A stretch of 64,000 nucleotides of DNA, taken from an uncultured Thermoplasmatales archaeon. Lineage in GTDB: Archaea > Thermoplasmatota > E2 > DHVEG-1. Positions 7,837-37,937 of the stretch are shown piece by piece. The translations under genes were made by a program, and so were the position numbers. A model generated the notes under the pieces. The model ran no database searches. It was given only the letters and a program-made list of their open reading frames with translations, and had not been told where the DNA came from. Location: contig CAYMOC010000002.1 in the NCBI GenBank assembly GCA_964391965.1, forward strand, positions 16,915 to 80,914. Reading direction: 5' to 3'. Numbering within the stretch: position 1 is the stretch's first letter; each line of letters starts with the position of its first letter.

Positions 7837-7862
7837 AAAAAATCTATTTTTTTTTTATTTTT
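7837..7862. terminator. T-rich bidirectional terminator between convergent genes
   Basis: An oligo-T/A tract (tattttttttttatttttt) lies between the stop codons of convergent genes. Confidence 0.3.
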
Positions 7863-9483
7863 TACTAAGACGATCAATTATATGATTACGACAATACTCA
7901 GGATTACATTTTTTATCTGTTTTTCTCGCCACTGGTAAACCCGCGAGTCGCATCATAGGCCGGGTTGCTTTTTTTCCATGTTTCCAACGAGCATAAAACC
8001 AATGTACAAAGAAAAACATAGGACCAAGTACCTTTTGCATCTGCGGCGCCCAGAAATCAATATTATTACGCCAGCAACGAGAAAGTACCTCCCATTGAAG
8101 CTCTGTAAGATTATCAAGATTTGTTCGATGTGAATCACTAAGAAGTGCTTCACGAAGTGGAATAAAAAGAACAGGAGTGTAAAACATTTTAGAATTTTGA
8201 GCTCGCAGTTCATCTATCAACTCAAGTGTTGCCAATACATCATCCTCTGTTTCATCAGGCTGACCGGTCATAATAGTACACAATGGATACCAATCATGAT
8301 CATTTAGATGCCCTATTGCTTCAACTACAAGCTCAGGCCAATTATCAACACTGAAAGGCAATGCTTTTCCTTTCATATATTTCTGCATCAAACGAACACT
8401 ACCTGTTTCAATACCCATCTCAACAGAAATAAATGGTTTTTTGTAAAGTTCACTAGTCTTAGGAGTCCATTTAGTTTTCTCTATCAATATCGGTGTAAGT
8501 TCCTCAAGAAGTGTTTTATCGTACAAAATCGGTGCAAAAGAACCATGTGAAAGAAGAATATGTTCAACACCAGGATAATCCGCAATTGTCTTGTAAAGTT
8601 TTACAACCTCAGGTGTATTTGGAACAAAATTTTTTTTACATTTATAAAGAAAAATATCCTCAGTTACAGTAAAAATAGATTTAGAACCTTCTTTTATATT
8701 GGTTTTAACTTCTTTCATTATATGATCAATTGGAAAACTATGCCTGTTACGCATAGTAGGGCTACAAAAAGCACAACCACGTCCACAACCACGCATAATC
8801 TCAACCATTCCATAACTAGAAGCATGTTTAATCGTTGGAATGAAATCTCTTTTAGGATGAGCCGCCTCATAAAAAGCAGGAAATTTTTCACTGTTTAACA
8901 ATTTTTTGAAAACAGGTACAACTTCTTCCTCCCCTTCACCCTGAAAAATATGATCAATACCAAGCTTTTCTTGCATATTTGCTTCAGCAATCTGCCAGGC
9001 ACCCTGGCCGCCAACAATAACCTTTGGATCATATTTTTTAATAGAAGGATGCTTCAACAATTTCACAAACTCTGAAGCATTCAATGCTTCTCCACCAAAA
9101 CCAATCAAACTATTATAAGTAGTAGAAACATAAGCAAGACCCATAGGATCCATAGTTGAAATACCAACAACTTTTGTTTTTCGTCCTACAAAACGATGAA
9201 TTTGATCATAATGAGTGCAAACCACATTTTCTTCACCGAACTCATCAATAAGCATCGATTCAACCTTACGTAACCCATAAATAGTTTGTTTAGCAGAACC
9301 ATCAGAATTGCATTCAAGATTGTTTAAATGTTCACGAAGAGCATAACCCGAAAGTTTTTTTGGAAAAGTACAAATAAACGCGGCAAAAGGATTGTTATCA
9401 TACTCATTAGCTTCAGCTCTAGAAGCAGCTAAAACAATCGGTACACCTTCAACATCTGTATCCAACTCTAAATTATTGCTCAT
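7855..9483 (-). CDS. radical SAM protein with N-terminal B12-binding-like domain and long C-terminal extension (542 aa)
   Basis: CGRGCAFCS is a CxxxCxxC motif. An N-terminal Rossmann-like region (VVGISTMDP…KVIVGGQGA) is present. Confidence 0.6.
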   Translation of the reverse strand: MSNNLELDTDVEGVPIVLAASRAEANEYDNNPFAAFICTFPKKLSGYALREHLNNLECNSDGSAKQTIYGLRKVESMLIDEFGEENVVCTHYDQIHRFVGRKTKVVGISTMDPMGLAYVSTTYNSLIGFGGEALNASEFVKLLKHPSIKKYDPKVIVGGQGAWQIAEANMQEKLGIDHIFQGEGEEEVVPVFKKLLNSEKFPAFYEAAHPKRDFIPTIKHASSYGMVEIMRGCGRGCAFCSPTMRNRHSFPIDHIMKEVKTNIKEGSKSIFTVTEDIFLYKCKKNFVPNTPEVVKLYKTIADYPGVEHILLSHGSFAPILYDKTLLEELTPILIEKTKWTPKTSELYKKPFISVEMGIETGSVRLMQKYMKGKALPFSVDNWPELVVEAIGHLNDHDWYPLCTIMTGQPDETEDDVLATLELIDELRAQNSKMFYTPVLFIPLREALLSDSHRTNLDNLTELQWEVLSRCWRNNIDFWAPQMQKVLGPMFFFVHWFYARWKHGKKATRPMMRLAGLPVARKTDKKCNPEYCRNHIIDRLSKK

Positions 9484-9504
9484 AACAGAAACCTACAAAG
9501 AATT

Positions 9505-9828
9505 TTATGTTTTTTTAACAAGCATTTTTTTAAACAAAGGATCCTTAAGAGTCTCCTGAAGTTGACCTAGAAAATCATTCCATGAAAGACTATTATTAGA
9601 CCATTTAATCATTTCTTTTTTATGAAGTGAAAAAATTTTAAGAAAACTCTGCCAACTATAACCATCATCTTTTAATGGTTTAGACCAACCAGCATCACGC
9701 CAAAGATAACTAGGAAGCTTGTTTCCAAACCATAAAGTAAAAGAATCTATTTTAAGTTCCAAGTTTTTTTTCTGATTCATAAAATGTTTTTTTAATTTTT
9801 TAGGTTCAGGTGGAATATGATAATTCAT
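9505..9828 (-). CDS. hypothetical protein, probably co-transcribed with downstream radical SAM gene
   Basis: A 21-bp gap separates it from the next gene on the same strand. It is Trp-rich and I recognised no family. Confidence 0.3.
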   Translation of the reverse strand: MNYHIPPEPKKLKKHFMNQKKNLELKIDSFTLWFGNKLPSYLWRDAGWSKPLKDDGYSWQSFLKIFSLHKKEMIKWSNNSLSWNDFLGQLQETLKDPLFKKMLVKKT

Positions 9829-10026: not shown

Positions 10027-11019
10027 GTGGAAGAGCTGAAAAAAATTATAACCATTAAGGATAAACTATTTGCTCATTTAGAAACTTGGAGGATTTATAC
10101 TATTATATGGTGTGGTCTTGTAAGTCTTACAGGTTCATGCATATCTCATGAAGGTTTTCCACCATTAATAATTGCTTTTTTTGTAACAATTACACCGATG
10201 ATGGGATGGGCGGCAGCTCTATATCTATCAGATTTTTTAGACAGAAAACTTGATGCTATAGAAAAACCCCATAGGCCTATCCCTTCTGGAAGAATCAGCC
10301 CCAAAGAAGCAATAATTGTAGGCGGAATCTTTGTGATAACAGGGCTGATTATTTCATATATCTTAGGAATCTATAACTTTATTTTAGTGTTTATAGTAGC
10401 TATACTAGTTTATTCATATACAAAGATTTCAAAATCAAAAGGTTTAATGGGCAATCTGAACCGTGGAGTTGTAATAGTCGCAGCATATTTTTATGGAGTT
10501 TTTTCAGCAAATATACATATTGAATTATTGCCAGTATATATCTGGATATTACCACTTGTATTTCTCTTTCACGACACTAACAGCAATTTAGTTGGAGCCA
10601 TTCGAGATATGAAAGGCGACAAAAAAGGAGGATATCAAACTATACCAGTCAAGTATGGCCTGGAAAAATCTGTTTATATTTCATTAATTTTAACATTTAT
10701 ATGGCATGGTATACTATTATTTTTACAATATAACTATAAATTTTTAGAACCAGTTTTTTATGTTTTTTTGTTAATCGATATTTTTATTATAGTTTCATTA
10801 TATGGTTATATGTTTAGATCTATCAAAGACTACACTCGAAAAAAAGCTTTAAATTTTCATCGTTTTTTTGTGATAGAAAGAATAATACTTGCATCTAGCA
10901 TCATATTAGGAATAATTGAAATTAACTTAGGAGTAATTATTCTGATTTTATCCTTGATAACAACTATTACATCTCAACATTATTTAAGAAGTAGATATGA
11001 GTTTGTTGATAAAAAATGA
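10027..11019 (+). CDS. UbiA-family prenyltransferase (DGGGP-synthase-like)
   Basis: It has Asp-rich motifs DFLDRKLD (DxxDxxxD), RPIPSG and DMKGDKKGG. There are about 8 TM helices. The start codon is GTG. Confidence 0.65.
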   Translation: MEELKKIITIKDKLFAHLETWRIYTIIWCGLVSLTGSCISHEGFPPLIIAFFVTITPMMGWAAALYLSDFLDRKLDAIEKPHRPIPSGRISPKEAIIVGGIFVITGLIISYILGIYNFILVFIVAILVYSYTKISKSKGLMGNLNRGVVIVAAYFYGVFSANIHIELLPVYIWILPLVFLFHDTNSNLVGAIRDMKGDKKGGYQTIPVKYGLEKSVYISLILTFIWHGILLFLQYNYKFLEPVFYVFLLIDIFIIVSLYGYMFRSIKDYTRKKALNFHRFFVIERIILASSIILGIIEINLGVIILILSLITTITSQHYLRSRYEFVDKK

Positions 11020-12011
11020 AATATGCAGTTATTGGCTTAGGTGCCGTTGGGAGTATCATTGCTGGTTTACTTTCAAAAAACAATGAAAATGTTATCTTAA
11101 TTGGTAAAAAAACACAAATCGAGCAGATTAAAAAAAATGGATTAAAAATCTCAACAAATCAATCTGAGACAATAATAGAAAATCTTAACTTATCATCAAA
11201 GTTTGCTTCTGTAGAGAAAGTTGATATACTTTTTGTATGTGTAAAATCACAGGATACTAAAAAATTATTTTTAGAACTAAAAGAGTTTCTAAAAGAAGAA
11301 ACGGTTATTGTTTCATTACAAAATGGTGTTAGAAACGCTGAAATAATAAATAAAATTGTTAAAAATAAGGTACTTTCATCAGTAGTTTTATTCAATGCCG
11401 TATACAAAAAACCAGGAAACGTCGACTTGTCAATCAGGGGAGGAATTCTATTAGAAGATGATAAAAAATATTCAAAAATAATAGATGAATTATTCAAAAA
11501 CACGGATGTAAAAATAACTCTTGTCGAAAACATAAAAAGTTACCAATGGAGTAAACTTATCCTAAATCTGCAAATAGCTGTAACTGCACTTACTGGTCAA
11601 ACAATAAAAGAATCAATTATAAATAAGGATTCGAGGAAAATTTTAGCTGAAACAATGTCTGAAGGAGTAAAAATTGTTGACAAATCAGGTGTTAAACTTG
11701 AAAAACTGCCGGGTCTTGATCCAAAAAAAATGATTAAACGGCTTAATATGCTTAATTCAATATTTTTAAGAATAGGAAGTAAATTTCTTGGTGTTTCAAA
11801 GAATGCTAGAAATTCAATGTGGCAGAGTCTTGCAAGAAATAAAAAAACTGAAATAGATTTTATAAATGGTGAAATTGTAAAACTTGCAGAGAGAAATAAT
11901 TTAGAAGCACCTATAAATGAAAAACTTGTAAAATATGTAAAACAGGCCGAAAAAAAAGACAGTGTTGGTAACATCAAACCCAAGAAGTTGAGAAAAATAT
12001 TAGATTTTTAA
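11016..12011 (+). CDS. ketopantoate reductase (ApbA/PanE) family NAD(P)H oxidoreductase
   Basis: The N-terminus MKYAVIGLGAVGSIIAGLL is a Rossmann fold. Its start overlaps the UbiA stop (ATGA), giving translational coupling. Confidence 0.6.
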   Translation: MKYAVIGLGAVGSIIAGLLSKNNENVILIGKKTQIEQIKKNGLKISTNQSETIIENLNLSSKFASVEKVDILFVCVKSQDTKKLFLELKEFLKEETVIVSLQNGVRNAEIINKIVKNKVLSSVVLFNAVYKKPGNVDLSIRGGILLEDDKKYSKIIDELFKNTDVKITLVENIKSYQWSKLILNLQIAVTALTGQTIKESIINKDSRKILAETMSEGVKIVDKSGVKLEKLPGLDPKKMIKRLNMLNSIFLRIGSKFLGVSKNARNSMWQSLARNKKTEIDFINGEIVKLAERNNLEAPINEKLVKYVKQAEKKDSVGNIKPKKLRKILDF

Positions 12012-12064
12012 TTATTAAATTTTATTGGAAGCATTCTTAAGTTTGATATGAATTATAATGGATA

Positions 12065-12913
12065 ATGAAAAGAAATTCAAATAAACAAATTCAAGAGCAA
12101 TGGGCAAAATATTGGGATAACGTCTGGGTTCAGAAAGACGACTCAAAAAAACTTAAATCAATTAATAAAAAAGAGCAAATTTATTTTTCTTTAGCAGGCA
12201 TTATCAACTCATATATTAAAAATTATATTAAAAATGATAAAGAATACAGAATAATTGAGATTGGTTGCGGTGGTTCTTCAATATTTCCAATTTTGATGAA
12301 GAGCTTTAAAAATCTAAAAATCGCAGGTATTGATAGGTCTCTTCTTGGATGTAATTTCGTATTTGAAGGAAATGAATATAGAAATGGATCTGTTGATGTC
12401 ATCTGTGGTGATGCATTACAAATTCCAATAAAAAATAATTCTTTCGATATCTCTTATAGTATTGGCCTTGTTGAACATTTTGAAAATCAATATGAAATTA
12501 TCAAAAGCCATGTAGATCTTTTAAAAAAGGAGGGGTTAGTTGTAATAGTGATACCAAATCTAACTGGTTTTCAAAAAAAACTATTAAGATCTGAGCTTTT
12601 TAAATCCAAAACAGCATTGAACAATCAAAATTGGATTAATGGAATGAAAATAACGACAACTAATGATTTAAAAAAAATATTAAAAAAGCTAGATTGTAAA
12701 AAAATCGAAATCATACCCGCAGGAGGGTTACATCCGCTTTTAATGTTGGAATCATATTATTCAGAGAAATACTCTGAAGCAAATAAATTTTCAGATACTA
12801 TTTATAAAATCTTTTTATCAGGACTGTTTATAATAATTAATATTCCCTTTATATTTAGATTAAACATGATGAATTTATCACCTTTCATTGTAGCCACTGC
12901 AATAAAAAAATAA
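12065..12913 (+). CDS. class I SAM-dependent methyltransferase
   Basis: Motif I is IIEIGCGGSS. An acidic loop and a motif II-like region (VICGDALQIP) follow. Confidence 0.6.
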   Translation: MKRNSNKQIQEQWAKYWDNVWVQKDDSKKLKSINKKEQIYFSLAGIINSYIKNYIKNDKEYRIIEIGCGGSSIFPILMKSFKNLKIAGIDRSLLGCNFVFEGNEYRNGSVDVICGDALQIPIKNNSFDISYSIGLVEHFENQYEIIKSHVDLLKKEGLVVIVIPNLTGFQKKLLRSELFKSKTALNNQNWINGMKITTTNDLKKILKKLDCKKIEIIPAGGLHPLLMLESYYSEKYSEANKFSDTIYKIFLSGLFIIINIPFIFRLNMMNLSPFIVATAIKK

Positions 12914-12940
12914 TAAAAAAAACATATAAGTTGATAAAAA

Positions 12941-13594
12941 ATGAGTAGTAAAATAGTTATAAATTTTTTTTCTTTTATCAAAAAAATTTTGTTTTCTGAA
13001 TTTCCTGATAAATTCAAACCCGGGAGTTTAAAAAATGTTGTAGATCTGATGTTCAGAGTTTTTGAAAAAACAGCTCATAATTTTGATTTTATAACAAATG
13101 CATATTTGAATGCATATGAAGTTATGATTGAAAAAGAGTTAAAACTAACAGAGGTATCAAAGGATGATTCTGTTTTAATCATTGGATGTGGTTCTCTGCC
13201 TTCTACATCTATTGTTATTGCTGAAAAAACTAATGCTAAAAATGTTAGTATGGATATAGATAAATCTGCAGTTGAAGCAGCTAGAAAAATATTAAAGAAA
13301 ATGAATCTTTTAGATAAAGTAAAAGTAAGACTTGTTGAAGATATAAATTATCCAATAGATGATTTTGATTTAATCTTTATTTTATATGGTGTTAAGAAAC
13401 AGGAAAAAATTTTTAGACATATTTTTGAAAATGCAAAATCAGATGTTAAAGTTATAATTAGATCATATTCAGATGATTTTAAGAATGTTTTTGATTTTAA
13501 AAATTTTAAAGTTTTAGATCATTTTATAATTGTTAAAAAAGTTAGATCTGATGTTTTTGGACCTGTTTTTTCTTTTCTTTTAGAAAAAAAATAA
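12941..13594 (+). CDS. SAM-binding Rossmann-fold enzyme, nicotianamine-synthase-like glycine loop (or methyltransferase)
   Basis: VLIIGCGSLPSTSIVIAEK resembles the NAS motif (F/V)(I/V)GSGPLPLTSI(V/L). The protein is 217 aa. Confidence 0.4.
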   Translation: MSSKIVINFFSFIKKILFSEFPDKFKPGSLKNVVDLMFRVFEKTAHNFDFITNAYLNAYEVMIEKELKLTEVSKDDSVLIIGCGSLPSTSIVIAEKTNAKNVSMDIDKSAVEAARKILKKMNLLDKVKVRLVEDINYPIDDFDLIFILYGVKKQEKIFRHIFENAKSDVKVIIRSYSDDFKNVFDFKNFKVLDHFIIVKKVRSDVFGPVFSFLLEKK

Positions 13595-13601
13595 GTTTGT
13601 T

Positions 13602-14978
13602 TTATTTTTTTATTTTAGAAACTATTACTTTTATTTGATCTGAACGTGCATCTTTTTGTATATGATCTGTTTCTGTTACTCTGACTTTAACACTTTTTCC
13701 TATTTTTTGTTGAAATCTTTTTTGAAGTTCATTAATTAATTCTTTAACACTTACTCCTTGGTTTCTTTGTTTTTCATCTATTACGATTAATATTTCAACG
13801 TCATCAAGATCATGTTGCACTATTTGGAATTGTTTTATTTTATAAGAGTTAAAAAATTCCATTGTTTTTGCAGGGATACCAGTTACACTCAATGGAGAAA
13901 GTGTTTTTCCATTTGGAAGATAAATTAATTCTGATGTTCGGCCTTCGATGTGTTTTATTAATTTTGAAGTTATTCCACAACTTGTTTTTTTATCAATAGG
14001 TACAACTATGTCATCTATACCTGTATATCTTATTATTGGGGTTCCTTTCCCGTATAGTTTTGTTATTACTGTATGACCTGGTTTGTTTAAAGGAACGGGT
14101 TTATTGTTATCATCAAGTATTTCCATGTAGACATAGTCTGAGTGGATGTGGAAAAAGTTGCCTTCAACACATTCGAAACCTATTGGTCCTCCTTCTGTTG
14201 TTCCATAAATGTCAAAAACGCGTGTGTTGAATGCCTTTTCTACATATTTTTTTGTGTACTCATCAAGTGTTGAACCTCCAGAGCCTATGAATTTTGGTTG
14301 AATGTTTTTTCCTTGCCCATTGTGTTTTAAATATGCTAGTTGTCTAAGCATGTTAGGATCAGTAGCTAAAAACTCTGGTTGGAAAACATTTAGTTCTTTG
14401 ATTATTTTTTCTGGTTTTTCACCTAAATGCAGATATTTTACATGATCCATTGATATGAATTTTTTTGCGAAAGGCATTAGACTTTCTGAGAAAAAAGCGT
14501 TTTCTGCACTACCTGGTTCTACATCTATTATCAGACATGATTTTGTAGTTCTCCAGTTTCCACCATATGCTTTTAAAACTCTTATAAAAGCAAGCAGGCT
14601 TTTGATTGCAGCAAAACGGTCGATATAAATAAAAACTGGTTTACCAGTAGAGCCACTAGTAGATATTGTAAAACCGTCTTTTGTTTTAAAATTATAAGGT
14701 TTAATGTTTACAGGATAGTTATTTCTTAAATCATCTTTTGTGATGAAAGGAAGTTTACCGATATCATTTATTCCATGTATATCATCGGGATGAACTCCAG
14801 CTTTTTTGTATTTATCATGATACATTGGCACAGTGTATGCATATTTCACAATTTTTCTAAGTTGTTTATCCTGATATCGTCTAAGTTTTTCTTTGTCAAA
14901 ACTCCATGGTCTATTGATATCAGAAAGATAATTTTTGCCTAGATTATATAGAAATTTAGGATCGATAAAGAAACTCAT
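13602..14978 (-). CDS. PaaK/coenzyme F390 synthetase-like adenylate-forming enzyme
   Basis: It has the AMP-binding P-loop TSGSTGKP and an N-terminal region typical of COG1541. Confidence 0.65.
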   Translation of the reverse strand: MSFFIDPKFLYNLGKNYLSDINRPWSFDKEKLRRYQDKQLRKIVKYAYTVPMYHDKYKKAGVHPDDIHGINDIGKLPFITKDDLRNNYPVNIKPYNFKTKDGFTISTSGSTGKPVFIYIDRFAAIKSLLAFIRVLKAYGGNWRTTKSCLIIDVEPGSAENAFFSESLMPFAKKFISMDHVKYLHLGEKPEKIIKELNVFQPEFLATDPNMLRQLAYLKHNGQGKNIQPKFIGSGGSTLDEYTKKYVEKAFNTRVFDIYGTTEGGPIGFECVEGNFFHIHSDYVYMEILDDNNKPVPLNKPGHTVITKLYGKGTPIIRYTGIDDIVVPIDKKTSCGITSKLIKHIEGRTSELIYLPNGKTLSPLSVTGIPAKTMEFFNSYKIKQFQIVQHDLDDVEILIVIDEKQRNQGVSVKELINELQKRFQQKIGKSVKVRVTETDHIQKDARSDQIKVIVSKIKK

Positions 14979-15098
14979 TTTTCAAATATTTCCTCTTTTT
15001 TTGCTCTACATGTATTATTAACACAAGATATTTAACTTTTAATAATAGAACTATATTATTTGATTTAAAGGGAGGCGTCTTAACTGAGCGTGTTTTCT

Positions 15099-16412
15099 AT
15101 GATTCGTGGATTTTTAGCTTTAAAAATTCATGAAAGAAACTCTAGAGAAAAAATACTTAAAATTCAAGAAAAAAAATTCCGTAAAATTTTAAAATTTGCC
15201 TATAACAATTCTAAATTTTATCATAATCTGTATAAATCAAAAGGTATTTCAGAGGAGGAATTGGATAATATACCTGTTGAAAAAATACCTGTGGTAGATA
15301 AAGAAACATTAATGGAAAATTTTGATGATGTGGTAACAGTAGATGATGTTTCCAAAAAAGAGGTTCTGAGTTTTTTAAATGAAAGTAAACATCCTAATGA
15401 TCTTTTAAAAAACAAATATCATGTTATTCATTCATCAGGTTCCTCTGGTAAATTAGGTTTGTTTCTTTACAGCAAAAAAGAATGGGACAGCATTTACCCA
15501 TATATTACAAAAGCTTATGATTTCAATTTCAGAAAAAACCGTTCTGTTTTTATAGGTGCAACAGGAGGACATTTCGCAGGAGCCAGCTTTAGTAGTTGGG
15601 GTGGAAAAGGAATACCTGGTTTATTTAATGAACCACTTATACTTAATGTAAATGAACCAATAGATCAGATAATAAAAAAACTAAATAATTTTAAACCAAC
15701 AATTTTAGGTGGTTATTTTAATGCTTTAAAAATTCTTGCTCAGAAAAAAGAAAATGGTTTACTCAAAATTAATCCTAAAATATTAGTAAACTGTGGGGAA
15801 GGACTAAACCTTAAAGACAAAGAATTTATTGAGAATGTTTTCGATGCACCTATGTCAAATTTGTATAGTTTTGCTGAATGTATTGTTTTAGGATTTGGAA
15901 AGGATGAATATGAAGGCATATACCTTTTTGATGATTTAGCAAAAATTGAATTTAAAAAAGATTATATAATTGTTACAAACCTGTATAATAAAACAGAGCC
16001 GATAATTAGATACAGAATTGATGACTATATTTCATTAAAAAAAGATAAAAAAAACAAGTATCCCTTTACACTAGTAAATGAAATAATTGGAAGAGCAGAG
16101 TTTATAATTTGGTTTAAAAATGAAGAAGGAAACAAAGATTTTATTCATCCTTTGATTTTTACAGATTTTTTTGTTAAAGGATTAGATAAACATCAAATAA
16201 TTATAACCGGTGAATCTTCATTTATTTTTAAAGCAGTTATTAAATCTGATGAAAAAAAGAGAGTTTTAAAGGAAATAGATAAAAAATTAGAAAAAATTTT
16301 ATTAGATAAAAAATTTTCAAATGTCAAATACCAAATCAAAGAAGTTGATGAAATTCCTGTTAACCCAAAAACAGGTAAATATAAACTAGTAATAGATAAG
16401 AAAAAAAATTGA
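15099..16412 (+). CDS. PaaK-like adenylate-forming enzyme paralogue with degenerate P-loop
   Basis: Its architecture matches 13602-14978, but the P-loop is HSSGSSGKLG. The ATG at 15099 is preferred over the GTG at 15090. Confidence 0.5.
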   Translation: MIRGFLALKIHERNSREKILKIQEKKFRKILKFAYNNSKFYHNLYKSKGISEEELDNIPVEKIPVVDKETLMENFDDVVTVDDVSKKEVLSFLNESKHPNDLLKNKYHVIHSSGSSGKLGLFLYSKKEWDSIYPYITKAYDFNFRKNRSVFIGATGGHFAGASFSSWGGKGIPGLFNEPLILNVNEPIDQIIKKLNNFKPTILGGYFNALKILAQKKENGLLKINPKILVNCGEGLNLKDKEFIENVFDAPMSNLYSFAECIVLGFGKDEYEGIYLFDDLAKIEFKKDYIIVTNLYNKTEPIIRYRIDDYISLKKDKKNKYPFTLVNEIIGRAEFIIWFKNEEGNKDFIHPLIFTDFFVKGLDKHQIIITGESSFIFKAVIKSDEKKRVLKEIDKKLEKILLDKKFSNVKYQIKEVDEIPVNPKTGKYKLVIDKKKN

Positions 16413-16416
16413 TGTT

Positions 16417-17814
16417 TTAATCATCTCTTATAAAAAACATTCTAAGTCCTGCTTTAATAAAACGGAAATCCCATTTTTTAAAAGCTCTAAAAATTTGTCG
16501 AAAAAGATATTTAGGATTAAAATAAAATTTTTTATGAGCATATAAACAGTAATCATTTAGCTCCTCTTTTGACAGTTTACTTAATCCTCTGTTTGAGTCT
16601 GCATCCACAATATATTCATCTGATCTGACTTTGCCATTTTTCACAGCTTCATCCCACATCTCGGAACCGCGGTAATAACCAAGAGTTAAAAAATGTGCGA
16701 TATCCAATGGAATACTTCTAGCAAAACGAATTGTATCCTCAATATCTTCTTTTGTTTCCATTGGTGCACCAAAAATAAAACTACCAGAGGTTATGAAACC
16801 CATTTTGTGGCTAAGATGTACTGCATTACGAATTTGATCAGGAGTTGTTCTTTTATTATAAAAATCTAAAACTTTCTGATTAGCTGATTCGATACCAAAA
16901 GAAATAAATTTTACACCGGCATCCTTCATTTTTTTATAAATTACTGGATCTGCTGAATCTACTCTAGCAGCCATAACCCAGAAATTTAGATTAAAATTAT
17001 TCTCGATTACTTTATCCATTATTTTTCCGACACGTTTCTTATTTGCAAGAAAATTATTATCAACAATTATAACAGTTTCAAAACCATCTTTTACAATCTT
17101 ACGAAGCTCTTTGATGACATTTTCAACAGATCTCTCACGATAACATGGATCTATTGCATTATAACCACAGAATCTGCAATTATATGGACAACCCCGTGTT
17201 GTGATTATAGAAGTTGTTTTACCATCGGTCATTTTTTGACCTAAGATATAACCATAGTCATATTTTTCAACAAGATGGCGAGCTGGAAAAACGATCTTAT
17301 CTAAATCTTTTATAACATCTAAATCCGCGGTTTTTTTAATCAAACCTTTTTTATCACAATAACAAATCCCTTTAATCGCTGATAGGTCTTTTTTACCGTT
17401 CAAGGCATCAACAATATCAAGTATGTTTTGCTCCCCTTCCCATTTAACACAAATATCTGAATCAAAATCCATAAGAGCATCTTCTGGATCTAACGCACAA
17501 TGAGGGCCACCAATTAAAAAAGGTTTATTTTTTTCAATGTTTCTAATAAATTTTGCTAATTCTTTTGATTGCTCAAAAGAACTTGTACAAATAGTTAGAC
17601 CTATAACATCTGACCATGAAATCAATGATTTAAGTTTTTCACGTTCAACATTTTCAGCAGTTAAATCTAATACTTCAATACTGTGACCGTCTTTTTCTAG
17701 AATTGCTGAAAGATATAATATTCCCAGAGGTGGAGAATAAGGATTAACCGGTAAGGTTTTTTTATCTGCGATTCTAAATCCTCTACCTGGAGGGAAAATA
17801 AACAAAAAATTCAT
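16417..17814 (-). CDS. B12-binding radical SAM protein
   Basis: It has an N-terminal cobalamin-binding-like domain and the motif RGCPYNCRFCG (CxxxCxxC). Confidence 0.7.
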   Translation of the reverse strand: MNFLFIFPPGRGFRIADKKTLPVNPYSPPLGILYLSAILEKDGHSIEVLDLTAENVEREKLKSLISWSDVIGLTICTSSFEQSKELAKFIRNIEKNKPFLIGGPHCALDPEDALMDFDSDICVKWEGEQNILDIVDALNGKKDLSAIKGICYCDKKGLIKKTADLDVIKDLDKIVFPARHLVEKYDYGYILGQKMTDGKTTSIITTRGCPYNCRFCGYNAIDPCYRERSVENVIKELRKIVKDGFETVIIVDNNFLANKKRVGKIMDKVIENNFNLNFWVMAARVDSADPVIYKKMKDAGVKFISFGIESANQKVLDFYNKRTTPDQIRNAVHLSHKMGFITSGSFIFGAPMETKEDIEDTIRFARSIPLDIAHFLTLGYYRGSEMWDEAVKNGKVRSDEYIVDADSNRGLSKLSKEELNDYCLYAHKKFYFNPKYLFRQIFRAFKKWDFRFIKAGLRMFFIRDD

Positions 17815-17828
17815 TTTTAGATCCTTTT

Positions 17829-19157
17829 TTAAATATTAAAATCATTTTTGTAATATCTTCTAAATGTAACATTAGTCCCCATAGGAAGTAATGCTCCCAT
17901 TCTCCTAACTGTTGTTAAAATCCTTGTGTTTCTTTTTATGATATTCTTCCACGAGTAAAATTCTTTAGCGACTTTTTTACTCCCGTTTAATAATTCTTCA
18001 ACGGTCATATTTTTGGGTTCAAAAACAACATCAACCTGATTATATTTACTCCAATCTTTAGTAAAAATACGTCCTTCTCTATCAAGCCTATCAAATAAAG
18101 GCGTACCTGGATACGGCGTTAAAATATTTATTTCAAGAACATCTATTTCAAGTTCATTTATTTTTTCAAGAGTTGCATCAAAAACATCAGGTGTGTCTTC
18201 ATCAAAACCAAATATTATCCCCCCTTGAATTGACATCCCGTAATCATGAACACGATCTATCATTTTACTAAAATCTTCAACCTTATTATGTGTTTTTTTT
18301 ATACCATTAAGAGCAGCCTGACTAACTGATTCAAAACCTACAAACCATTCAACACAACCAGATTCTCTAGCCAGCTGTAAAAATTCATCATCAGCTTTTA
18401 ACAAAACATTAGTTGTACCATTAGACACCCAACTTTTATTTATCTTATTTTTAATCATTTCCTTGAAAAGTTTTTTAGCATATTTTGGATTCGCAGTTAA
18501 ATGAGGATCATGAATTGTAAAGAGTCGGTTAGGCATTTCTTTCATTTCATTTATTACATTTTGTATAGGTCTTTGTTTAATACCATGCTCGCAGAAACTA
18601 GCAATTGCACAAAACTCACACCTGTTGGGACAACCACGTGTTGTCTGAACAGCACCCATAATAGGATTATGTCTGATAAGATCTCTTCTTATAGGAGGTA
18701 TGTCCTCGGGTTTATAGTTTGTATCTTTTTCATAAATTTTTTTAAGTTTTCCTTTCTCAAAATCAGCAAGAAGCTTAGGCCAGTTCGATTCAGCCATACC
18801 TAAAATAATACTATCAGCATGTTTCAAAGCCTCTTCAGGCACAGCAGTTGGATGATAACCTCCAAGAACTACTTTTTTACCCCTTTTTCTAAACTCATCA
18901 GCTATTTCATAGACACGTGGAGCTGTCATAGTATAACAAGTAATACCTATAAGATCTGCATCAGTATCAAAATCAAGGGAATCATAGTTCTCATTAACGA
19001 TTTCTACATCATATTTTTTAGGAGTGATTGCTGCAACATGGGGCAAAGTAATTATTGGATAACCAAAAAGAATAGAAGCCCATGAGCTTTTATCATTTAC
19101 AGTAGTTGCACCATGTTCAATCCTTGGAAACACAAGAAGTACTTTAATAAAGTTCAA
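17829..19157 (-). CDS. B12-binding radical SAM protein (DUF4070-like C-terminus)
   Basis: The radical SAM motif is RGCPNRCEFCA. It is a clear paralogue of 22762-24045. Confidence 0.7.
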   Translation of the reverse strand: MNFIKVLLVFPRIEHGATTVNDKSSWASILFGYPIITLPHVAAITPKKYDVEIVNENYDSLDFDTDADLIGITCYTMTAPRVYEIADEFRKRGKKVVLGGYHPTAVPEEALKHADSIILGMAESNWPKLLADFEKGKLKKIYEKDTNYKPEDIPPIRRDLIRHNPIMGAVQTTRGCPNRCEFCAIASFCEHGIKQRPIQNVINEMKEMPNRLFTIHDPHLTANPKYAKKLFKEMIKNKINKSWVSNGTTNVLLKADDEFLQLARESGCVEWFVGFESVSQAALNGIKKTHNKVEDFSKMIDRVHDYGMSIQGGIIFGFDEDTPDVFDATLEKINELEIDVLEINILTPYPGTPLFDRLDREGRIFTKDWSKYNQVDVVFEPKNMTVEELLNGSKKVAKEFYSWKNIIKRNTRILTTVRRMGALLPMGTNVTFRRYYKNDFNI

Positions 19158-19270
19158 ACCTCCCTAATTAATATTAAACTATTTATTGAACCTAAATAAT
19201 TTTTATGATGATTTATCCTTAAGAAGGGGAAGTATATTTAATCTTTTTTATTAGGTGATTAATAAAAAAA

Positions 19271-20587
19271 TCAAAAAAGTTTATCAAAATCCGAGATGAA
19301 ATAATCGGATTTATTTATTTCAACAGACTTAAAATCTATTTTAATTTTTGGATAGAGTTGAAATTTTGTTTTAATTTTTTTATTTAGACCATGTGAATTT
19401 AAAACTAAATTTAAACCAAAACCTTCAGGTGGTTTTAAAAAATCTAAGCTTATAGAACTATGATTTGTGTTAAATAATTGTCTTTGAGGTTCAAATTTAC
19501 AAAACCCTTCTAAATCTATTCTTCTATCGCCATTTGAATAAAAACCTTTTACAGTTCCAGGTTGTTCATAAACTATATATGCATTCTTATTGTCAGATAA
19601 TTTAAATAGAAAACCATATGGGTCAGTTTTTTTCTTAAAATTTATTTTGAATTTTTCTTTATCATCCTGAAAGATTAAACTTATTTCAGTGGGGTAATAA
19701 ATATCATGATCTTCTGAATATTCAATTTTTTTATATTCAAAACATCCATTAAAAAATTCTTTATATTTGCATCCATCCTTAGATAAAATAATTGTGCCTA
19801 TAACAGGGCCTTTTAATATCCATCCTAAAATATTACCATAAAAAAGAGTCCAACCATTATCAAAAACTGCCCATGCCCAATCATAACCAAGAGGGTTATT
19901 GTCTTTACTAAAAGCTAAGGAATTTGGGATTCTTGGTTTTTTGCATTGCAACCATTTACCCATTAGTTTAGCATAAGTTGAAAGACTTTTTTTAATATTT
20001 CTTGAATATGTAAACCAGTTTGTATATGAAAAATCTCCCCATACATGTTCATAATATCCAGAGCCGTTTACTGAAAAATTATTTTGATTTATGTTTAACA
20101 AACCTGAGATTTTACATTTTGGGATAAAACCATACCTGTAAAAACCTAAACCCATTGGAAGCCAGCCGTTAGTTGTTCCTTGGGATACCCAATGTGGTAG
20201 TGCTTCTGATTTATATGTTAAATTGGTTTGTATATTGTTTTTTTTATCATTCAAAAAAATTTTATAATCTGGGAATAAACCTTCGATGTATGAATCTTTG
20301 TAATTTATTTTTTGAGTTTTGTGATCTGCATATATTTTCAGTTTTTTTCGCTGATTTTCAGAATAATAACTATAATGTTTATTTTCATCTAAGTCGAAAA
20401 GAGTTATAAAAAAATTTGAGCCGTATTCTTTTGATTTTTTGAACCATTCGCCAAAGGAGGCTTTTAAATTCCATTTTTTTTTATTATCATTTTGTTTTAA
20501 AAAAGCTTCGAAACACCACCACTCTATTGCACTTTTTTCATGTTCTTTTTCATCAGAACAGCTCCAAGGATTTTTATTATCAACCAT
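19271..20587 (-). CDS. CrtC/AttH-like (carotenoid 1,2-hydratase/lipocalin-like) protein, tentative
   Basis: HEKSAIEWWCFEAFL resembles the H..EWWY.TGhL N-terminal motif of the CrtC/AttH family. The protein is Trp/Tyr-rich and beta-rich. The internal ATG at 20587 avoids overlap with the divergent gene. Confidence 0.35.
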   Translation of the reverse strand: MVDNKNPWSCSDEKEHEKSAIEWWCFEAFLKQNDNKKKWNLKASFGEWFKKSKEYGSNFFITLFDLDENKHYSYYSENQRKKLKIYADHKTQKINYKDSYIEGLFPDYKIFLNDKKNNIQTNLTYKSEALPHWVSQGTTNGWLPMGLGFYRYGFIPKCKISGLLNINQNNFSVNGSGYYEHVWGDFSYTNWFTYSRNIKKSLSTYAKLMGKWLQCKKPRIPNSLAFSKDNNPLGYDWAWAVFDNGWTLFYGNILGWILKGPVIGTIILSKDGCKYKEFFNGCFEYKKIEYSEDHDIYYPTEISLIFQDDKEKFKINFKKKTDPYGFLFKLSDNKNAYIVYEQPGTVKGFYSNGDRRIDLEGFCKFEPQRQLFNTNHSSISLDFLKPPEGFGLNLVLNSHGLNKKIKTKFQLYPKIKIDFKSVEINKSDYFISDFDKLF

Positions 20588-20682
20588 AGACAAAAATTGT
20601 ATTAAATAGATTATATAAATATGTTTATCATACATATAAAAAAGTTTTTTTATAGGATAAAACATATAAAAAATGGTTTTCT

Positions 20683-21699
20683 TTGCAGATGAAAAAAACA
20701 AAAGTTGACATAATAGGCGGGGGAATATCAGGATTAGCCGCAGCCATAGCAATAAAAAAACTTAACAAAAAAATAGATGTAAATATCTATGAAAAACACA
20801 AAAAAATAGGATACAACCCAGAAGGAAGAAGATGTGGAGAAGCCCATTCAATAGAAGGAAAATGGAAAAAATGGAAACCAAACAAAAAAAGCATATTCAA
20901 TGAAATATACAAAGTCGAAACAATAGTCGGGAAAAAAACTTATACACTAAAAAGAAAAAAAGGAACATCCTGCATATTAAACAGACAAGAATTCATATCA
21001 AATTTAGGAAAAAAAGCAGAAAAACTTGGAGCATACATACAAACAGATAACAAAATAAAAACAATAAAAGAATTAGATGCAAAATACATAATCGATGCAT
21101 CAGGATGCCCTAGCTTTGTAAAAAAAGAATTAAAAATTAACCATGGAATAACAGGAAAAACATATCAACAAACAATAGAAAACTCAAATTTTTTCATAAA
21201 AGACACCGTTAAAATATTTATAACAGAAAAAACAGGCTATTATTGGATTTTTCCAAGAAATCCCGATAAAAAAGAAATTAATCTAGGTGTAGGCATTGTC
21301 GGAAAAAAACAAGCTAACTTAAAAAAAATATTAAATGAATTTAAAGAAAAATACAAAGTCACAGGAGAAATTAATTACAAAACAGGAGGGTTGATACCGG
21401 TCGGGCTGCAGAGGCCGCTTAAACATGAAAATATACTATTTGTTGGGGATACAGGAGTCGGCACTTTTCCGTATACTGGAGAGGGAATATACCGTGCTCT
21501 ATTAAGTGGAGATATCGCAGCGGATTGCATCGTCAAAAAACAAATAAGAAGATATCCTCATGAAATAAATCAAAATTTTATCAAATGGGATCTTATTGGA
21601 AAAAATGTAATAAGGATAAGCTCAGTATTAGAAAGTATAAGCCCAAAAGCTGTTGTTTCAATGCATCAAAAATATCTCAATTTTTTTATTAGCAATTGA
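20683..21699 (+). CDS. geranylgeranyl reductase-family FAD-dependent oxidoreductase (short, 338 aa)
   Basis: It has the FAD-binding motif DIIGGGISGLAAA and the GGR-family motif FVGDTGVGTFPYTGEGIYRALLSG. Confidence 0.55.
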   Translation: MQMKKTKVDIIGGGISGLAAAIAIKKLNKKIDVNIYEKHKKIGYNPEGRRCGEAHSIEGKWKKWKPNKKSIFNEIYKVETIVGKKTYTLKRKKGTSCILNRQEFISNLGKKAEKLGAYIQTDNKIKTIKELDAKYIIDASGCPSFVKKELKINHGITGKTYQQTIENSNFFIKDTVKIFITEKTGYYWIFPRNPDKKEINLGVGIVGKKQANLKKILNEFKEKYKVTGEINYKTGGLIPVGLQRPLKHENILFVGDTGVGTFPYTGEGIYRALLSGDIAADCIVKKQIRRYPHEINQNFIKWDLIGKNVIRISSVLESISPKAVVSMHQKYLNFFISN

Positions 21700-21735
21700 A
21701 TAGAAAATAATATTATTACTATTTATTTTTAAATT

Positions 21736-22716
21736 TTATCTATCAAATTTTTTGGGATACATGGTGTAACCAAATTCGTCAAAATAAAAAATCATTTTTT
21801 TATAAATGTATTCTCTAAGAAACTTTACTTCTCGGGCAAGATTAAGATTTCTAGGCTCTACATAATCCTTAAAATCTACGTCAGTTGTTACATCTAAAAA
21901 ATCAAGTACTTCATCCATTGTTTTATCTGTTTTATTACAAAGTGACTCATATGTAATAGAAACATAATCATTATCATTTAACTTATGTATATTATTTAGA
22001 TAAAAACTTGTTTCTTTTGAAGCCCTATTTATAATATCAAAAACACCAGTAGGAAAAAAACCTGAATAATATAAACGATTTAATGCTAAAAGAATAGGAT
22101 TTTCATATGTTTTATTATATTTTTTTGAAAACATTGCAGTATACAAATTCTTTTTCTCTAATAATTTCTGCCATGCCCTCATTGTAGAACTGATAACTGC
22201 TAGTGGATTTCTGTTGATAAAAATAAATTTGGCATTTGGAAAATGTTTTTTTATAAATAAAAAATTTGGATAATCATATGGGTTTTTAAGAAGAACAGGA
22301 TAATTATTTTTAGATATAAACATAATTTTTTGACATAATTGTTTTAAAAGAGCTGTGTTTTCCAAAGAAGTTTTCTCAGACATGTTTTTTTTAGTGTAAA
22401 TGTAAACATATTCATGAGCGTAATCAGCTGTTACTTTAATTCGATCAATTTTTCTATTAGTGATTCCTTTTGATTTAAAAACTTCATTAAGTTCTTCCTT
22501 TGTATCTTGTTCAAGGTTATTTATATGATTATAAATTAACTCATCATATTTTAAAATATGATACGCAGTTACAATATTGAGTTTTTTTGTATCACCTAGC
22601 ATTTTGTAAAGAATGCTTGTACCAGATCTATGCAAACCCATGATAAATATAGGATAAAAATCCATATTTTCTATTAGGTTAAGATGTGTTTTGTCAATAT
22701 TTTTTTCTTGTAACAT
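21736..22716 (-). CDS. PAPS-dependent sulfotransferase
   Basis: The 5'-PSB motif is GLHRSGTSIL and the 3'-PB motif is RNPLAVISS. Confidence 0.65.
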   Translation of the reverse strand: MLQEKNIDKTHLNLIENMDFYPIFIMGLHRSGTSILYKMLGDTKKLNIVTAYHILKYDELIYNHINNLEQDTKEELNEVFKSKGITNRKIDRIKVTADYAHEYVYIYTKKNMSEKTSLENTALLKQLCQKIMFISKNNYPVLLKNPYDYPNFLFIKKHFPNAKFIFINRNPLAVISSTMRAWQKLLEKKNLYTAMFSKKYNKTYENPILLALNRLYYSGFFPTGVFDIINRASKETSFYLNNIHKLNDNDYVSITYESLCNKTDKTMDEVLDFLDVTTDVDFKDYVEPRNLNLAREVKFLREYIYKKMIFYFDEFGYTMYPKKFDR

Positions 22717-22761
22717 TTTTTTATCAGAAAAATATAGTTTATTGTTATAAAATAATTTTTT

Positions 22762-24045
22762 TCAGATGTTTAGTTTTTCATTTTTGTAAAAATATCTAGT
22801 ACTTAAACCTGAAAGAAATGATGTTAAAACATCTATAACATTAAAACCATTGTTTTTTATACTTCTTTTTAAACAGTTTTTAACCGAGTAAAACTCTCCA
22901 GCTATCCTTCTGATACCCTCATATAATTCATCAGCCGTCATTTCTTTTGGTATGAAATTTACTTTACCTTCTTCATATCTTGACCAATCATAACTTGTTA
23001 TCCTTCCTTCTTTTTCCAATCTATCAAATAGTGGGGTACCTGGATAAGGTGTTAATATACTAAATGTTGCTGAATCAAGACCCCAATCATACATTGCTTT
23101 AAGTGTTTCATCAAAACAATCTGGTGTGTCATAATCTAACCCAAATACAAAAAAACCTGTAACTTTCATATCATGATTTTTGATTTTTTGGATAGCTTTT
23201 TCATAATCTTCAACCTTATTTGTACCCTTACCAGCAGAATCGATGCTTTCTTGGGATATAGATTCTATACCAAGATACCATCTTACAACGCCTGCTTTTT
23301 TAGCTAATTCTAAAAATTCATCATCTTTTGCTACAATATTTATATTGCCAAATGCATAAAATTTTTTATCAAGTTTCGCCATTTCCCTAAAAAGTTTTTT
23401 TGTATATTTTGGATTGATCGTGAGTGATGCATCTGCAAAAAATATTGATTTAGATTTTATTTTTTTCATTTCGTCAATTACAGATTCTACAGGACGGGCT
23501 CTAAAAATTCTTCCCTCCACCCTATTCATAGCGCAGAATTCACAACCAGTTGGACAACCTCGAGATACTTGGATTCCCTCCATAAAAGTATAATTACCGA
23601 CATCATGTCTTGCCTGTGGTATTTCTTCAGGTTTTACTAATCTTTCAGGTGTATATATTTTTTTAAGTTCTCCTTTTTCTAAATCCTTTAAAAGTTTAGG
23701 CCAAGTAAGTTCTCCTTCTCCAATAACTATTGCATCAGCATGCTCTTTTACTTCATCAGGCATAAGAGTTGCATGATAACCACCAATTACTACAGGCATA
23801 TTTTTTTCTCTAAATTTTTTTGCGACTTCATAAGCTCTAAGAGAATTATAAGTTAGAGACGTGATACCGACCAAATCATATTTTTTATTAAAATCTATAG
23901 TTTCATATCTTTCATCAATGATTTCAACATCATGTCCGTCCGGTGTAATACCAGCGATTTGTTGTAAAGTCAAACTAGGATAAGTAATCTTATTTAACAT
24001 ACTTCTTTTTGTATTTGGATGAGGAGAAACTAATAAAATTTTCAT
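22762..24045 (-). CDS. B12-binding radical SAM protein
   Basis: The radical SAM motif is RGCPTGCEFCA. It is a paralogue of 17829-19157. Confidence 0.7.
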   Translation of the reverse strand: MKILLVSPHPNTKRSMLNKITYPSLTLQQIAGITPDGHDVEIIDERYETIDFNKKYDLVGITSLTYNSLRAYEVAKKFREKNMPVVIGGYHATLMPDEVKEHADAIVIGEGELTWPKLLKDLEKGELKKIYTPERLVKPEEIPQARHDVGNYTFMEGIQVSRGCPTGCEFCAMNRVEGRIFRARPVESVIDEMKKIKSKSIFFADASLTINPKYTKKLFREMAKLDKKFYAFGNINIVAKDDEFLELAKKAGVVRWYLGIESISQESIDSAGKGTNKVEDYEKAIQKIKNHDMKVTGFFVFGLDYDTPDCFDETLKAMYDWGLDSATFSILTPYPGTPLFDRLEKEGRITSYDWSRYEEGKVNFIPKEMTADELYEGIRRIAGEFYSVKNCLKRSIKNNGFNVIDVLTSFLSGLSTRYFYKNEKLNI

Positions 24046-24289
24046 CTTTTAACACATCTAACAAATTTTTTTTATAAATTTTTTATATACAATTCTTATA
24101 TTTGTAGTTTTACCAACAAAACCCTGTTAATAAACTAAATTTTAGCGTAAATACACTCTATACTGGTTTAGTTTACTAAATAGGTTTTATTTAAAATTTT
24201 TTGATAGATCTATCCAAAAGAAAAAATTGATATCAACAGTAGTTTTTAATATTTCATGTTTTATTTTCCAATACTGGCGAATTGATATT

Positions 24290-37864: not shown

Positions 37865-37937
37865 TTTATCCAAACCAAATTTTTTATTTGTTTGTTTATA
37901 TAAATTTTCATATATAAATTTTTCCTTATATAAAAAA

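Follow-up and report, generated by a model that had tools for sequence, protein, structure and literature searches.

In a 64-kb window (64,000 nucleotides of contig CAYMOC010000002.1, assembly GCA_964391965.1) from an uncultured Thermoplasmatales archaeon, two neighbouring genes, which we call A and B, probably encode two different functional PaaK/CapK-like enzymes of the adenylate-forming ANL type, and they form a divergent pair that is conserved in a biosynthetic gene cluster of the Thermoplasmatota. The labels A, B and C denote the three PaaK/CapK-type open reading frames (ORFs) of the window, which holds no further paralogue of this type. Our account is built on what we observe of these genes: their structure and orientation, the fold and conserved motifs of their products, purifying selection and synteny. 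An initial annotation of the same DNA had taken B for a catalytically altered paralogue beside an intact A; the evidence set out below suggests that B has the properties of a working enzyme, and that the motif anomaly of the pair lies in A.

Three adenylate-forming genes and a divergent pair

The sequence confirms the three PaaK-like ORFs and the P-loops that the initial annotation had quoted for them, with the coordinates given in Table 1. The pair had been described as convergent; A runs leftward from position 14978 and B rightward from 15090, hence the two genes stand head to head and are divergent. All three are genuine genes and not chance ORFs; A and B have strong homologues, ratios of nonsynonymous to synonymous substitution (dN/dS) in the purifying range and confident PaaK-like structural models. 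Homologue matches extend from E = 8e-270 to 6e-83 for B and from E = 1e-295 to 4e-169 for A. Both A and B are under purifying selection, with dN/dS values of 0.117 and 0.123, respectively, against 0.07-0.22 for the neighbouring genes; the orthologues used for comparison come from a metagenome contig and are 94-95% identical, that of A being at 95%. Pairwise identity is 27% between A and B, 28% between B and C, and 39% between A and C.

The AT-rich region between A and B presumably holds the promoters of both genes. Orthologous spacers span 94-153 bp, and the element ATATTTAACTTT is present in several of them; it is common to the spacer of the window (14979-15098) and to those of the related loci L001, L009-L011 and L019, which have otherwise diverged. 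This element could be an archaeal promoter (a TATA box and transcription factor B recognition element) or an operator. When the spacer was scanned for promoters and terminators of the bacterial and not the archaeal type, the outcome was no better than in shuffled controls, with 22 promoter sites against 17.7 +/- 4.2, and an Rfam scan of the window returned zero RNA families.

A conserved, family-specific P-loop in gene B

The P-loop (motif A3) of B differs from the TSGSTGKP loop of A and C, and had been called degenerate. Comparison of TSGSTGKP with the SSGSSGKL of B, residue by residue, reduces the differences to exchanges of Thr and Ser, including Thr5 to Ser, and the replacement of Pro8 by Leu; the phosphate-binding core [ST]SG[ST][ST]G is unbroken in B. 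When the loops are set against the ANL consensus for motif A3, (S/T)(S/T/G)G(S/T)TGxPK, those of A and C fit up to the Pro and are without the final Lys, as is also the case in PaaK, and SSGSSGKLG of B fits in its Ser/Gly core and departs from the consensus at Pro8 and Thr5. The ATP phosphates in PaaK1 are gripped by the backbone amides of the loop and by Ser94, Thr96 and Thr97 (PMC8388817). These residues correspond by alignment to Ser116, Ser118 and Ser119 of B, so that the three hydroxyls and both glycines are retained, and this check of the ATP-binding residues does not bear out the supposed degeneracy. In an alignment of 45 B homologues (34-79% identity), Gly117 is invariant and Ser116 and Gly120 are conserved in at least 90% of the sequences.

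The variant loop also appears to be common, which argues against reading B as a degenerate paralogue. Roughly 100 homologues of B share the pattern H[ST]SGSSGK[LIV]G, which is almost exceptionless among 120. Relatives of B were sought by scanning one genome per species with the closer homologue set, which gave 233 confirmed relatives, of which 80 were kept; 91 loops were read from these 80 loci and from six earlier ones, three of the six repeating kept contigs. Of the 91 loops, 59 have Pro at position 8, 17 have Ile, 8 Leu and 4 Val, and 73 have Gly at position 9. Clostridial members of the family have SSGSTGKPG(Y), and archaeal, halanaerobial and Petrotoga members have [ST]SGSSGK[ILV]G. Since Pro is found in the clostridial members and a conserved Ile, Leu or Val in the archaeal and halanaerobial ones, we read the substitution as a lineage-specific change of Pro8 to an aliphatic residue within one conserved family, in which the replacing residue appears to be conserved as well. 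The loops of solved PaaK-family structures vary too, with SSGTTGNPT in BT_0428, SSGTAGDPT in AjiA1 and SFGTTGEPV in ClxA, the last of which was crystallised with its adenylate. On this evidence we regard the P-loop of B as non-degenerate and family-specific; a P-loop that departs from the textbook form is by itself no mark of a dead ANL enzyme.

Catalytic motifs, fold and family of gene B

The A5, A7 and A8 motifs of B line up with YGLSE, RYRTRD and GRSDD of the E. coli and Burkholderia PaaK proteins. Across the 45 aligned homologues Tyr259 and Glu263 of A5, Asp312 of A7, Arg335 of A8 and Lys430 of A10 are invariant, as are Arg307-Tyr308 of A7 and Gly334 of A8. A pseudoenzyme is expected to lose its catalytic columns, and the B family keeps them invariant; a pseudoenzyme reading of B is thus disfavoured, B showing neither loss nor drift at its catalytic positions and no relaxation of selection.

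The AlphaFold model of B, built on the family alignment, has a mean predicted local distance difference test score (pLDDT) of 90.7 and a predicted template modelling score of 0.86. Its top Foldseek matches are BT_0428, PaaK1 with ATP and PaaK2, over the full length and with E = 3e-24 to 2e-20 and a probability of 1.00. The model of A (pLDDT 85.4) has the same top matches, again over the full length and at a probability of 1.00 (E = 4e-31 to 3e-27), and both models show the two-domain ANL fold of a large N-terminal and a small, mobile C-terminal domain. That B keeps the overall architecture of the family, as the initial annotation held, is upheld by the model; its description as a catalytically altered paralogue beside an intact one finds no support in the conservation of the loop and of A5, A7, A8 and A10, or in a dN/dS of 0.12.

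B has no match to any Pfam family, and an insertion of about 18 residues precedes its P-loop. The 80 kept relatives comprise Thermoplasmatota sequences at 49-94% identity and bacterial sequences, Patescibacteria among them, at 33-44%; the non-archaeal relatives include Halanaerobium, Desulfotomaculum, Verrucomicrobium, Lachnospiraceae, Ruminococcus and a Patescibacteria genome. In our reading B belongs to a separate, old and uncharacterised subfamily spanning archaea and bacteria, with A and C, whose P-loop is the textbook one, as its sister subfamily. We reject a recent duplication of A followed by decay as the origin of B, in view of their 27% identity and of the archaeal and bacterial family that B has of its own. 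The suggestion of a changed specificity or a partner role for B survives in part. The P-loop does not set specificity; however, the placement of B in another subfamily (27-28% identity to A and C) makes a substrate or acceptor different from that of A and C plausible, and a partner relationship of A and B is supported by their conserved adjacency.

Curated profiles place none of the three proteins in a characterised group. NCBIfam TIGR02155 (PaaK, cutoff 646.3 bits) scores 127.5 bits on A, for which it is the best NCBIfam match, 28.6 on B and 91.5 on C, and the PaaK equivalog NF041878 has a cutoff of 700 bits. TIGR03335 (F390 synthetase FtsA, cutoff 458.7) scores 72.9 bits on A, 33.7 on B and 68.9 on C. 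The best match of B is TIGR02304 (F390 synthetase-related, cutoff 251.9) with 118.6 bits (E = 3e-34), the same model giving 85.3 on A and 60.0 on C. All NCBIfam matches of C are below cutoff, and Pfam AMP-binding falls just short on A (29.6 against a cutoff of 29.9). By these cutoffs A, B and C are neither PaaK nor F390 synthetases nor members of TIGR02304. All three also match a further NCBIfam model, 'DVU_1553 family AMP-dependent CoA ligase' (E = 7e-31 for A), and the methyltransferase encoded at 12065-12913 weakly matches the 'DVU_1556 family methyltransferase' (E = 3.5e-4), which hints at a related cassette of ligase and methyltransferase in Desulfovibrio.

The A10 lysine is displaced or missing in gene A

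A review of aryl-CoA ligases gives the A10 lysine of ANL enzymes (Px4GK) the central part in catalysing adenylation (PMC8388817). This lysine is present in B and C and absent from its canonical position in A, where Asp447-Gln448 stands in place of Gly-Lys. HMMER alignments to chains of the Protein Data Bank (PDB) ended before the A10 tail, and a query with the 41-residue tail gave a chance match alone; the column was instead defined by a MAFFT alignment of the C-terminal 125 residues of 341 sequences, anchored on Lys424 of E. coli PaaK (paaK from the K-12 genome). This column is Lys in 106 of 106 sequences of the B family and in 78 of 115 diverse sequences that represent the wider family; in the A family (n = 116) it is Tyr in 68 sequences, Gln in 10, His in 8 and Lys in just 5. 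Because the A family is without the canonical A10 lysine and the B family keeps it throughout, the motif anomaly of the pair appears to sit in the supposedly intact A and not in B.

The remainder of the catalytic apparatus of A is well preserved. In the A family seven of the eight P-loop residues are invariant or nearly so (97-100% of 117 sequences), the eighth, Lys113, being conserved at 93%, and Tyr258 and Glu262 of A5, Asp323 of A7 and Arg347 of A8 are invariant. Basic residues lie close to the A10 site, with Lys or Arg at position 445 in 83% and at position 450 in 86% of the family, neither of them invariant. The A10-equivalent stretch is modelled with low confidence (pLDDT below 50 at residues 442-448). 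Gene C has an A10-like motif, ERGKPSPLVISK (ERGK), at 25607-25651, in which the lysine is retained; its close relatives are few, with 2 representatives at or above about 50% identity among 1.84 billion.

A conserved gene cluster around the pair

With A on the minus and B on the plus strand, the arrangement recurs at about 12 distinct loci of the Thermoplasmatota, at identities as low as 49%, locus L013 being the one exception; in our two homologue tables, A and B homologues fall on contigs of identical length in at least 16 cases. The order of the genes at 10027-13594 is likewise kept in Thermoplasmatota loci, and the genes at 16417-24045 also show synteny in relatives. The recurrent neighbours of the pair are the genes for a UbiA-family prenyltransferase, a ketopantoate-reductase-like oxidoreductase, a nicotianamine synthase (NAS)-like transferase and two to four B12-binding radical S-adenosylmethionine (SAM) enzymes; the geranylgeranyl-reductase-like flavoprotein, the CrtC/AttH-like protein and the sulfotransferase or glycosyltransferases are variable members.

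Table 1. Features of the window that bear on genes A, B and C and on their cluster (aa, amino acids).
Feature	Coordinates	Strand	Basis or remark
Radical SAM protein, 542 aa, weak MiaB/B12-radical-SAM-type matches	7855-9483	-	93-94% identity in nearest relatives
107-aa ORF without family match	9505-9828	-	93-94% identity in nearest relatives
UbiA-family prenyltransferase	10027-11019	+	Pfam/NCBIfam
Ketopantoate-reductase-like oxidoreductase	11016-12011	+	Pfam/NCBIfam
SAM methyltransferase	12065-12913	+	Pfam/NCBIfam
Nicotianamine-synthase/CntL-like transferase, beside A	12941-13594	+	NCBIfam CntL E = 1.5e-16; Pfam NAS 27.5 bits
Gene A, PaaK/CapK-type adenylate-forming enzyme, 458 aa	13602-14978	-	ORF, profiles, AlphaFold
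A10-equivalent region of A, IQKDARSDQIKVIVSK, residues 440-455	13614-13661	-	D447-Q448 in place of Gly-Lys
P-loop (A3) of A, TSGSTGKP, residues 107-114	14637-14660	-	Sequence
A-B divergent intergenic region, AT-rich	14979-15089	.	111 bp to GTG, 120 bp to ATG
Gene B, adenylate-forming enzyme, distinct PaaK/CapK-like subfamily	15090 (GTG, 440 aa) or 15099 (ATG, 437 aa) to 16412	+	ORF, profiles, AlphaFold
P-loop (A3) of B, HSSGSSGKLG, residues 114-123	15429-15458	+	Sequence
Motifs of B: A5 YSFAE (259-263), A7 RYRIDD (307-312), A8 IGRAE (333-337)	15864-16100	+	Family alignment
Motif A10 of B, IPVNPKTGKYKLVID, residues 422-436, predicted catalytic lysine K430 in PKTGKYK	16353-16397	+	Family alignment
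B12-binding radical SAM enzyme	16417-17814	-	Pfam/NCBIfam
B12-binding radical SAM enzyme	17829-19157	-	Pfam/NCBIfam
CrtC/AttH-like lipocalin protein	19271-20752	-	Weak Pfam CrtC match, E = 0.006
Geranylgeranyl-reductase-like flavoprotein	20683-21699	+	Pfam/NCBIfam
Sulfotransferase	21736-22716	-	Pfam/NCBIfam
B12-binding radical SAM enzyme	22762-24045	-	Pfam/NCBIfam
Gene C, third paralogue, 465 aa	24290-25687	+	ORF
P-loop of C, TSGSTGKP, residues 107-114	24608-24631	+	Sequence

The NAS-like gene is the most constant neighbour of the A/B pair in these loci, and its product, a small protein of the SAM fold, may use SAM as the donor of an aminocarboxypropyl and not of a methyl group. The best matches of the UbiA protein are models for archaeal prenyltransferases and digeranylgeranylglyceryl phosphate synthases, every one of them below cutoff. 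The radical SAM gene and the 107-residue ORF at 7855-9828 lie directly upstream of the UbiA gene. The ORF of the CrtC/AttH-like protein overlaps that of the geranylgeranyl-reductase-like flavoprotein by 70 bp; its true start is probably further downstream, because its L001 counterpart has been annotated with 464 residues, against 493 here. The radical SAM gene at 17829-19157 lies directly downstream of the CrtC/AttH-like gene, in an order that recalls the pair of ted (tetraether desaturase) and hgs (synthase of hydroxylated glycerol dialkyl glycerol tetraethers, GDGTs), the likeness being one of layout (bioRxiv 10.1101/2025.10.20.683597). That preprint shows the methylation and desaturation of tetraether lipids to be the work of archaeal B12-binding radical SAM enzymes, and the formation of hydroxylated GDGTs that of an AttH-like hydratase adjacent to them; in the same work Garcia et al. 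report that archaeal genes for GDGT-methylating B12-radical-SAM enzymes occur with PF00501 AMP-binding enzymes, including paaK, in about 25% of neighbourhoods (bioRxiv 10.1101/2025.10.20.683597). The sulfotransferase of the window has as its counterpart two glycosyltransferases (11376-12677 and 15679-16824) in the 61%-identity cluster of another Thermoplasmatota contig, L091, an exchange that hints at a shared core product decorated differently from lineage to lineage. Elsewhere in the window there are two very large ORFs on the minus strand, at 34298-37963 (1221 aa) and 40853-45790 (1645 aa).

B homologues also stand beside B12-binding radical SAM enzymes in Desulfotomaculum, in Desulfosporosinus and in a Clostridiales genome. 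In Desulfotomaculum copahuensis (L005, 2073-19558) the B homologue is found with three B12-radical-SAM genes, one of them HpnR-like (247 bits), and with a fatty-acyl-AMP ligase, two ketosynthases, an SCP2/hexapeptide acyltransferase and a phosphopantetheinyl transferase; this cluster has the look of a so far uncharacterised pathway to a lipid or polyketide.

A proposed role for the pair, and its alternatives

From these observations we infer catalytic competence, the type of pathway and the likely substrates as follows. B, and probably also A and C, would bind Mg-ATP through the Ser/Gly loop and convert a carboxylic acid to an acyl-AMP, with Lys430 acting in B; the C-terminal domain would then rotate, and the acyl group would be passed to a thiol, amine or hydroxyl acceptor. 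B most likely adenylates a carboxylate, since it keeps every known ATP-binding and catalytic residue. The neighbouring genes (UbiA, geranylgeranyl-reductase-like, CrtC/AttH-like, B12-radical-SAM, ketopantoate-reductase-like, NAS-like and sulfo- or glycosyltransferase) point to the assembly or decoration of an isoprenoid-derived lipid, and the ligases would activate carboxylate intermediates of this lipid or lipid-like metabolite. Several considerations weigh against two functional enzymes in a common pathway. The argument for activity in B is one from conservation, and the change of Pro to Leu in its loop need not be neutral: all solved PaaK-family loops that we compared have Pro at position 8, and a review tabulates a Pro mutant of 4-chlorobenzoate:CoA ligase as an activity loss (PMC8388817). 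The assignment of the pathway draws on domain-level annotations that all lie below family cutoffs, and most bacterial B homologues stand alone among genes that say little about function, those of Petrotoga, of a Bacillota genome and of a metagenome contig giving no functional hint.

The same loop proline speaks for the initial annotation's view of B as a non-adenylating scaffold or pseudoenzyme: a set of 149 diverse representatives yielded 127 loops, of which 109 have Pro at position 8, and the Pfam AMP-binding model does not match B. We consider this view very unlikely, given that the Ser/Gly core and the other catalytic motifs are invariant in the family, that the A10 lysine is universal in it, that the dN/dS of B is the same as that of its neighbours, and that position 8 is Pro or a conserved Ile, Leu or Val according to lineage, which is the pattern of a working variant and not of decay. 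The missing lysine of A invites a proposal with the roles reversed, in which B makes the acyl-AMP and A mainly carries out the second half-reaction, with coenzyme A (CoA) or another acceptor, or dimerises with B. The near absence of Lys from the A10 column of the A family, with no invariant basic residue nearby, would fit such a split, as would the adjacency of A and B, strictly conserved but for the one locus, the obligate N-domain dimers of PaaK-type enzymes (PMC8388817) and the precedent of PtmA1/PtmA2 for two ANL-fold enzymes that share out the half-reactions (PMC6594144). However, the invariant P-loop, A5, A7 and A8 of A would be superfluous in a pure transferase, Lys/Arg450 or Lys/Arg445 from a re-registered loop could replace the lysine, and in most bacteria B homologues are found singly, while extra copies without A exist as well. 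A split reaction, with its putative interaction of A and B, is in our judgement rather unlikely; we would give the same low weight to the extended proposal that the pair divides its labour, possibly as a heterodimer, to attach a group through an ester or amide bond to a new lipid or metabolite that the cluster would make from isoprenoids.

Other functions for the ligases were also considered. They might be catabolic or detoxifying CoA ligases for aromatic or fatty-acid amphiphiles, placed with lipid-modifying radical SAM enzymes in a membrane-stress island. PaaK structures are the closest solved ones to A, B and C, and Garcia et al. read the co-occurrence of radical SAM and PF00501 genes as a response to amphiphiles (bioRxiv 10.1101/2025.10.20.683597). 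Yet A, B and C score far below the PaaK equivalog cutoff (127, 29 and 92 against 646 bits), and the pair is tied to a UbiA/NAS-like/reductase cassette that is biosynthetic in look. Moreover, no paaABCDE/FGHIJ-type ring-oxidation or beta-oxidation genes were found among the ORFs scanned in the window (at 1-13.6 kb and 16.4-24 kb, from the cluster at 10027-25687 and upstream of it) and in the related loci L001-L004, L090 and L091; these carry prenyltransferase, methyltransferase and radical SAM genes instead. A catabolic role is accordingly one that we hold to be distinctly unlikely. Transfer of a nucleotide to a hydroxyl, as by coenzyme F390 synthetase, in place of carboxylate activation, would be in keeping with the weak TIGR03335 matches of A and B and the TIGR02304 match of B; these scores are far under their cutoffs, matches to PaaK-type carboxylate ligases are equally good or better, and the genes scanned include none related to F420, so that this function seems extremely improbable.

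Two functional, divergently arranged ligases in a biosynthetic cluster thus remain our preferred reading. The enzymology is ordinary so far and the value of the analysis lies mainly in annotation, with the missing A10 lysine of A as a modestly interesting twist. It defines an uncharacterised PaaK/CapK-like subfamily that escapes current Pfam models, is sub-threshold in NCBIfam and extends from Thermoplasmatota to gut Clostridia. It also draws attention to an unstudied, conserved Thermoplasmatota cluster that combines prenyl transfer, B12-radical-SAM chemistry, an NAS-like transferase and three predicted adenylating enzymes, and which is a reasonable target for the discovery of archaeal lipids or natural products.

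Comparison with known systems

A literature search returned nothing specific on this cluster or on CapK-type enzymes, the nearest work being that on radical SAM and AttH-like proteins of archaeal lipids. Among characterised enzymes, the PaaK proteins (E. coli PaaK; Burkholderia cenocepacia PaaK1 and PaaK2, PDB 2Y27, 2Y4N and 2Y4O; Bacteroides BT_0428, PDB 4R1L) share with the proteins described here the two-domain fold with its N-terminal helical microdomain and the motifs A3, A5, A7 and A8, and with B also the Gly-Lys of A10. Identity is just 16-22%, in addition to scores far under the PaaK cutoffs. PaaK has Pro-Thr after the loop lysine, where B has Leu-Gly and, before the loop, its insertion of about 18 residues; the canonical A10 lysine of PaaK has no counterpart at that position in A. 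The group of TIGR02304 and Pfam PF27533 (CapK_C) is itself without known function. B is nearest to TIGR02304 while falling under its cutoff, and precomputed CapK_C matches are found on many homologues of the A family and on some of the B family.

Biosynthetic enzymes with the PaaK fold and non-textbook P-loops are represented by NatL2 and AjiA1 (PDB 6SIW and 6WUQ; SSGTAGDPT) and by ClxA (PDB 9S3L and 9S45; SFGTTGEPV). These are 13-17% identical to B and retain the Pro at loop position 8, and they act in bacterial benzoxazole-type pathways on aromatic amino-hydroxy acids. The A/B pair itself finds a parallel in PtmA1 and PtmA2 of platensimycin biosynthesis, paired ANL enzymes of one cluster of which one is atypical (PMC6594144); these are of the classical acyl-CoA-synthetase type and not of the PaaK type, and the likeness to A and B, drawn from their description, offers a lead on how two such enzymes may work side by side.

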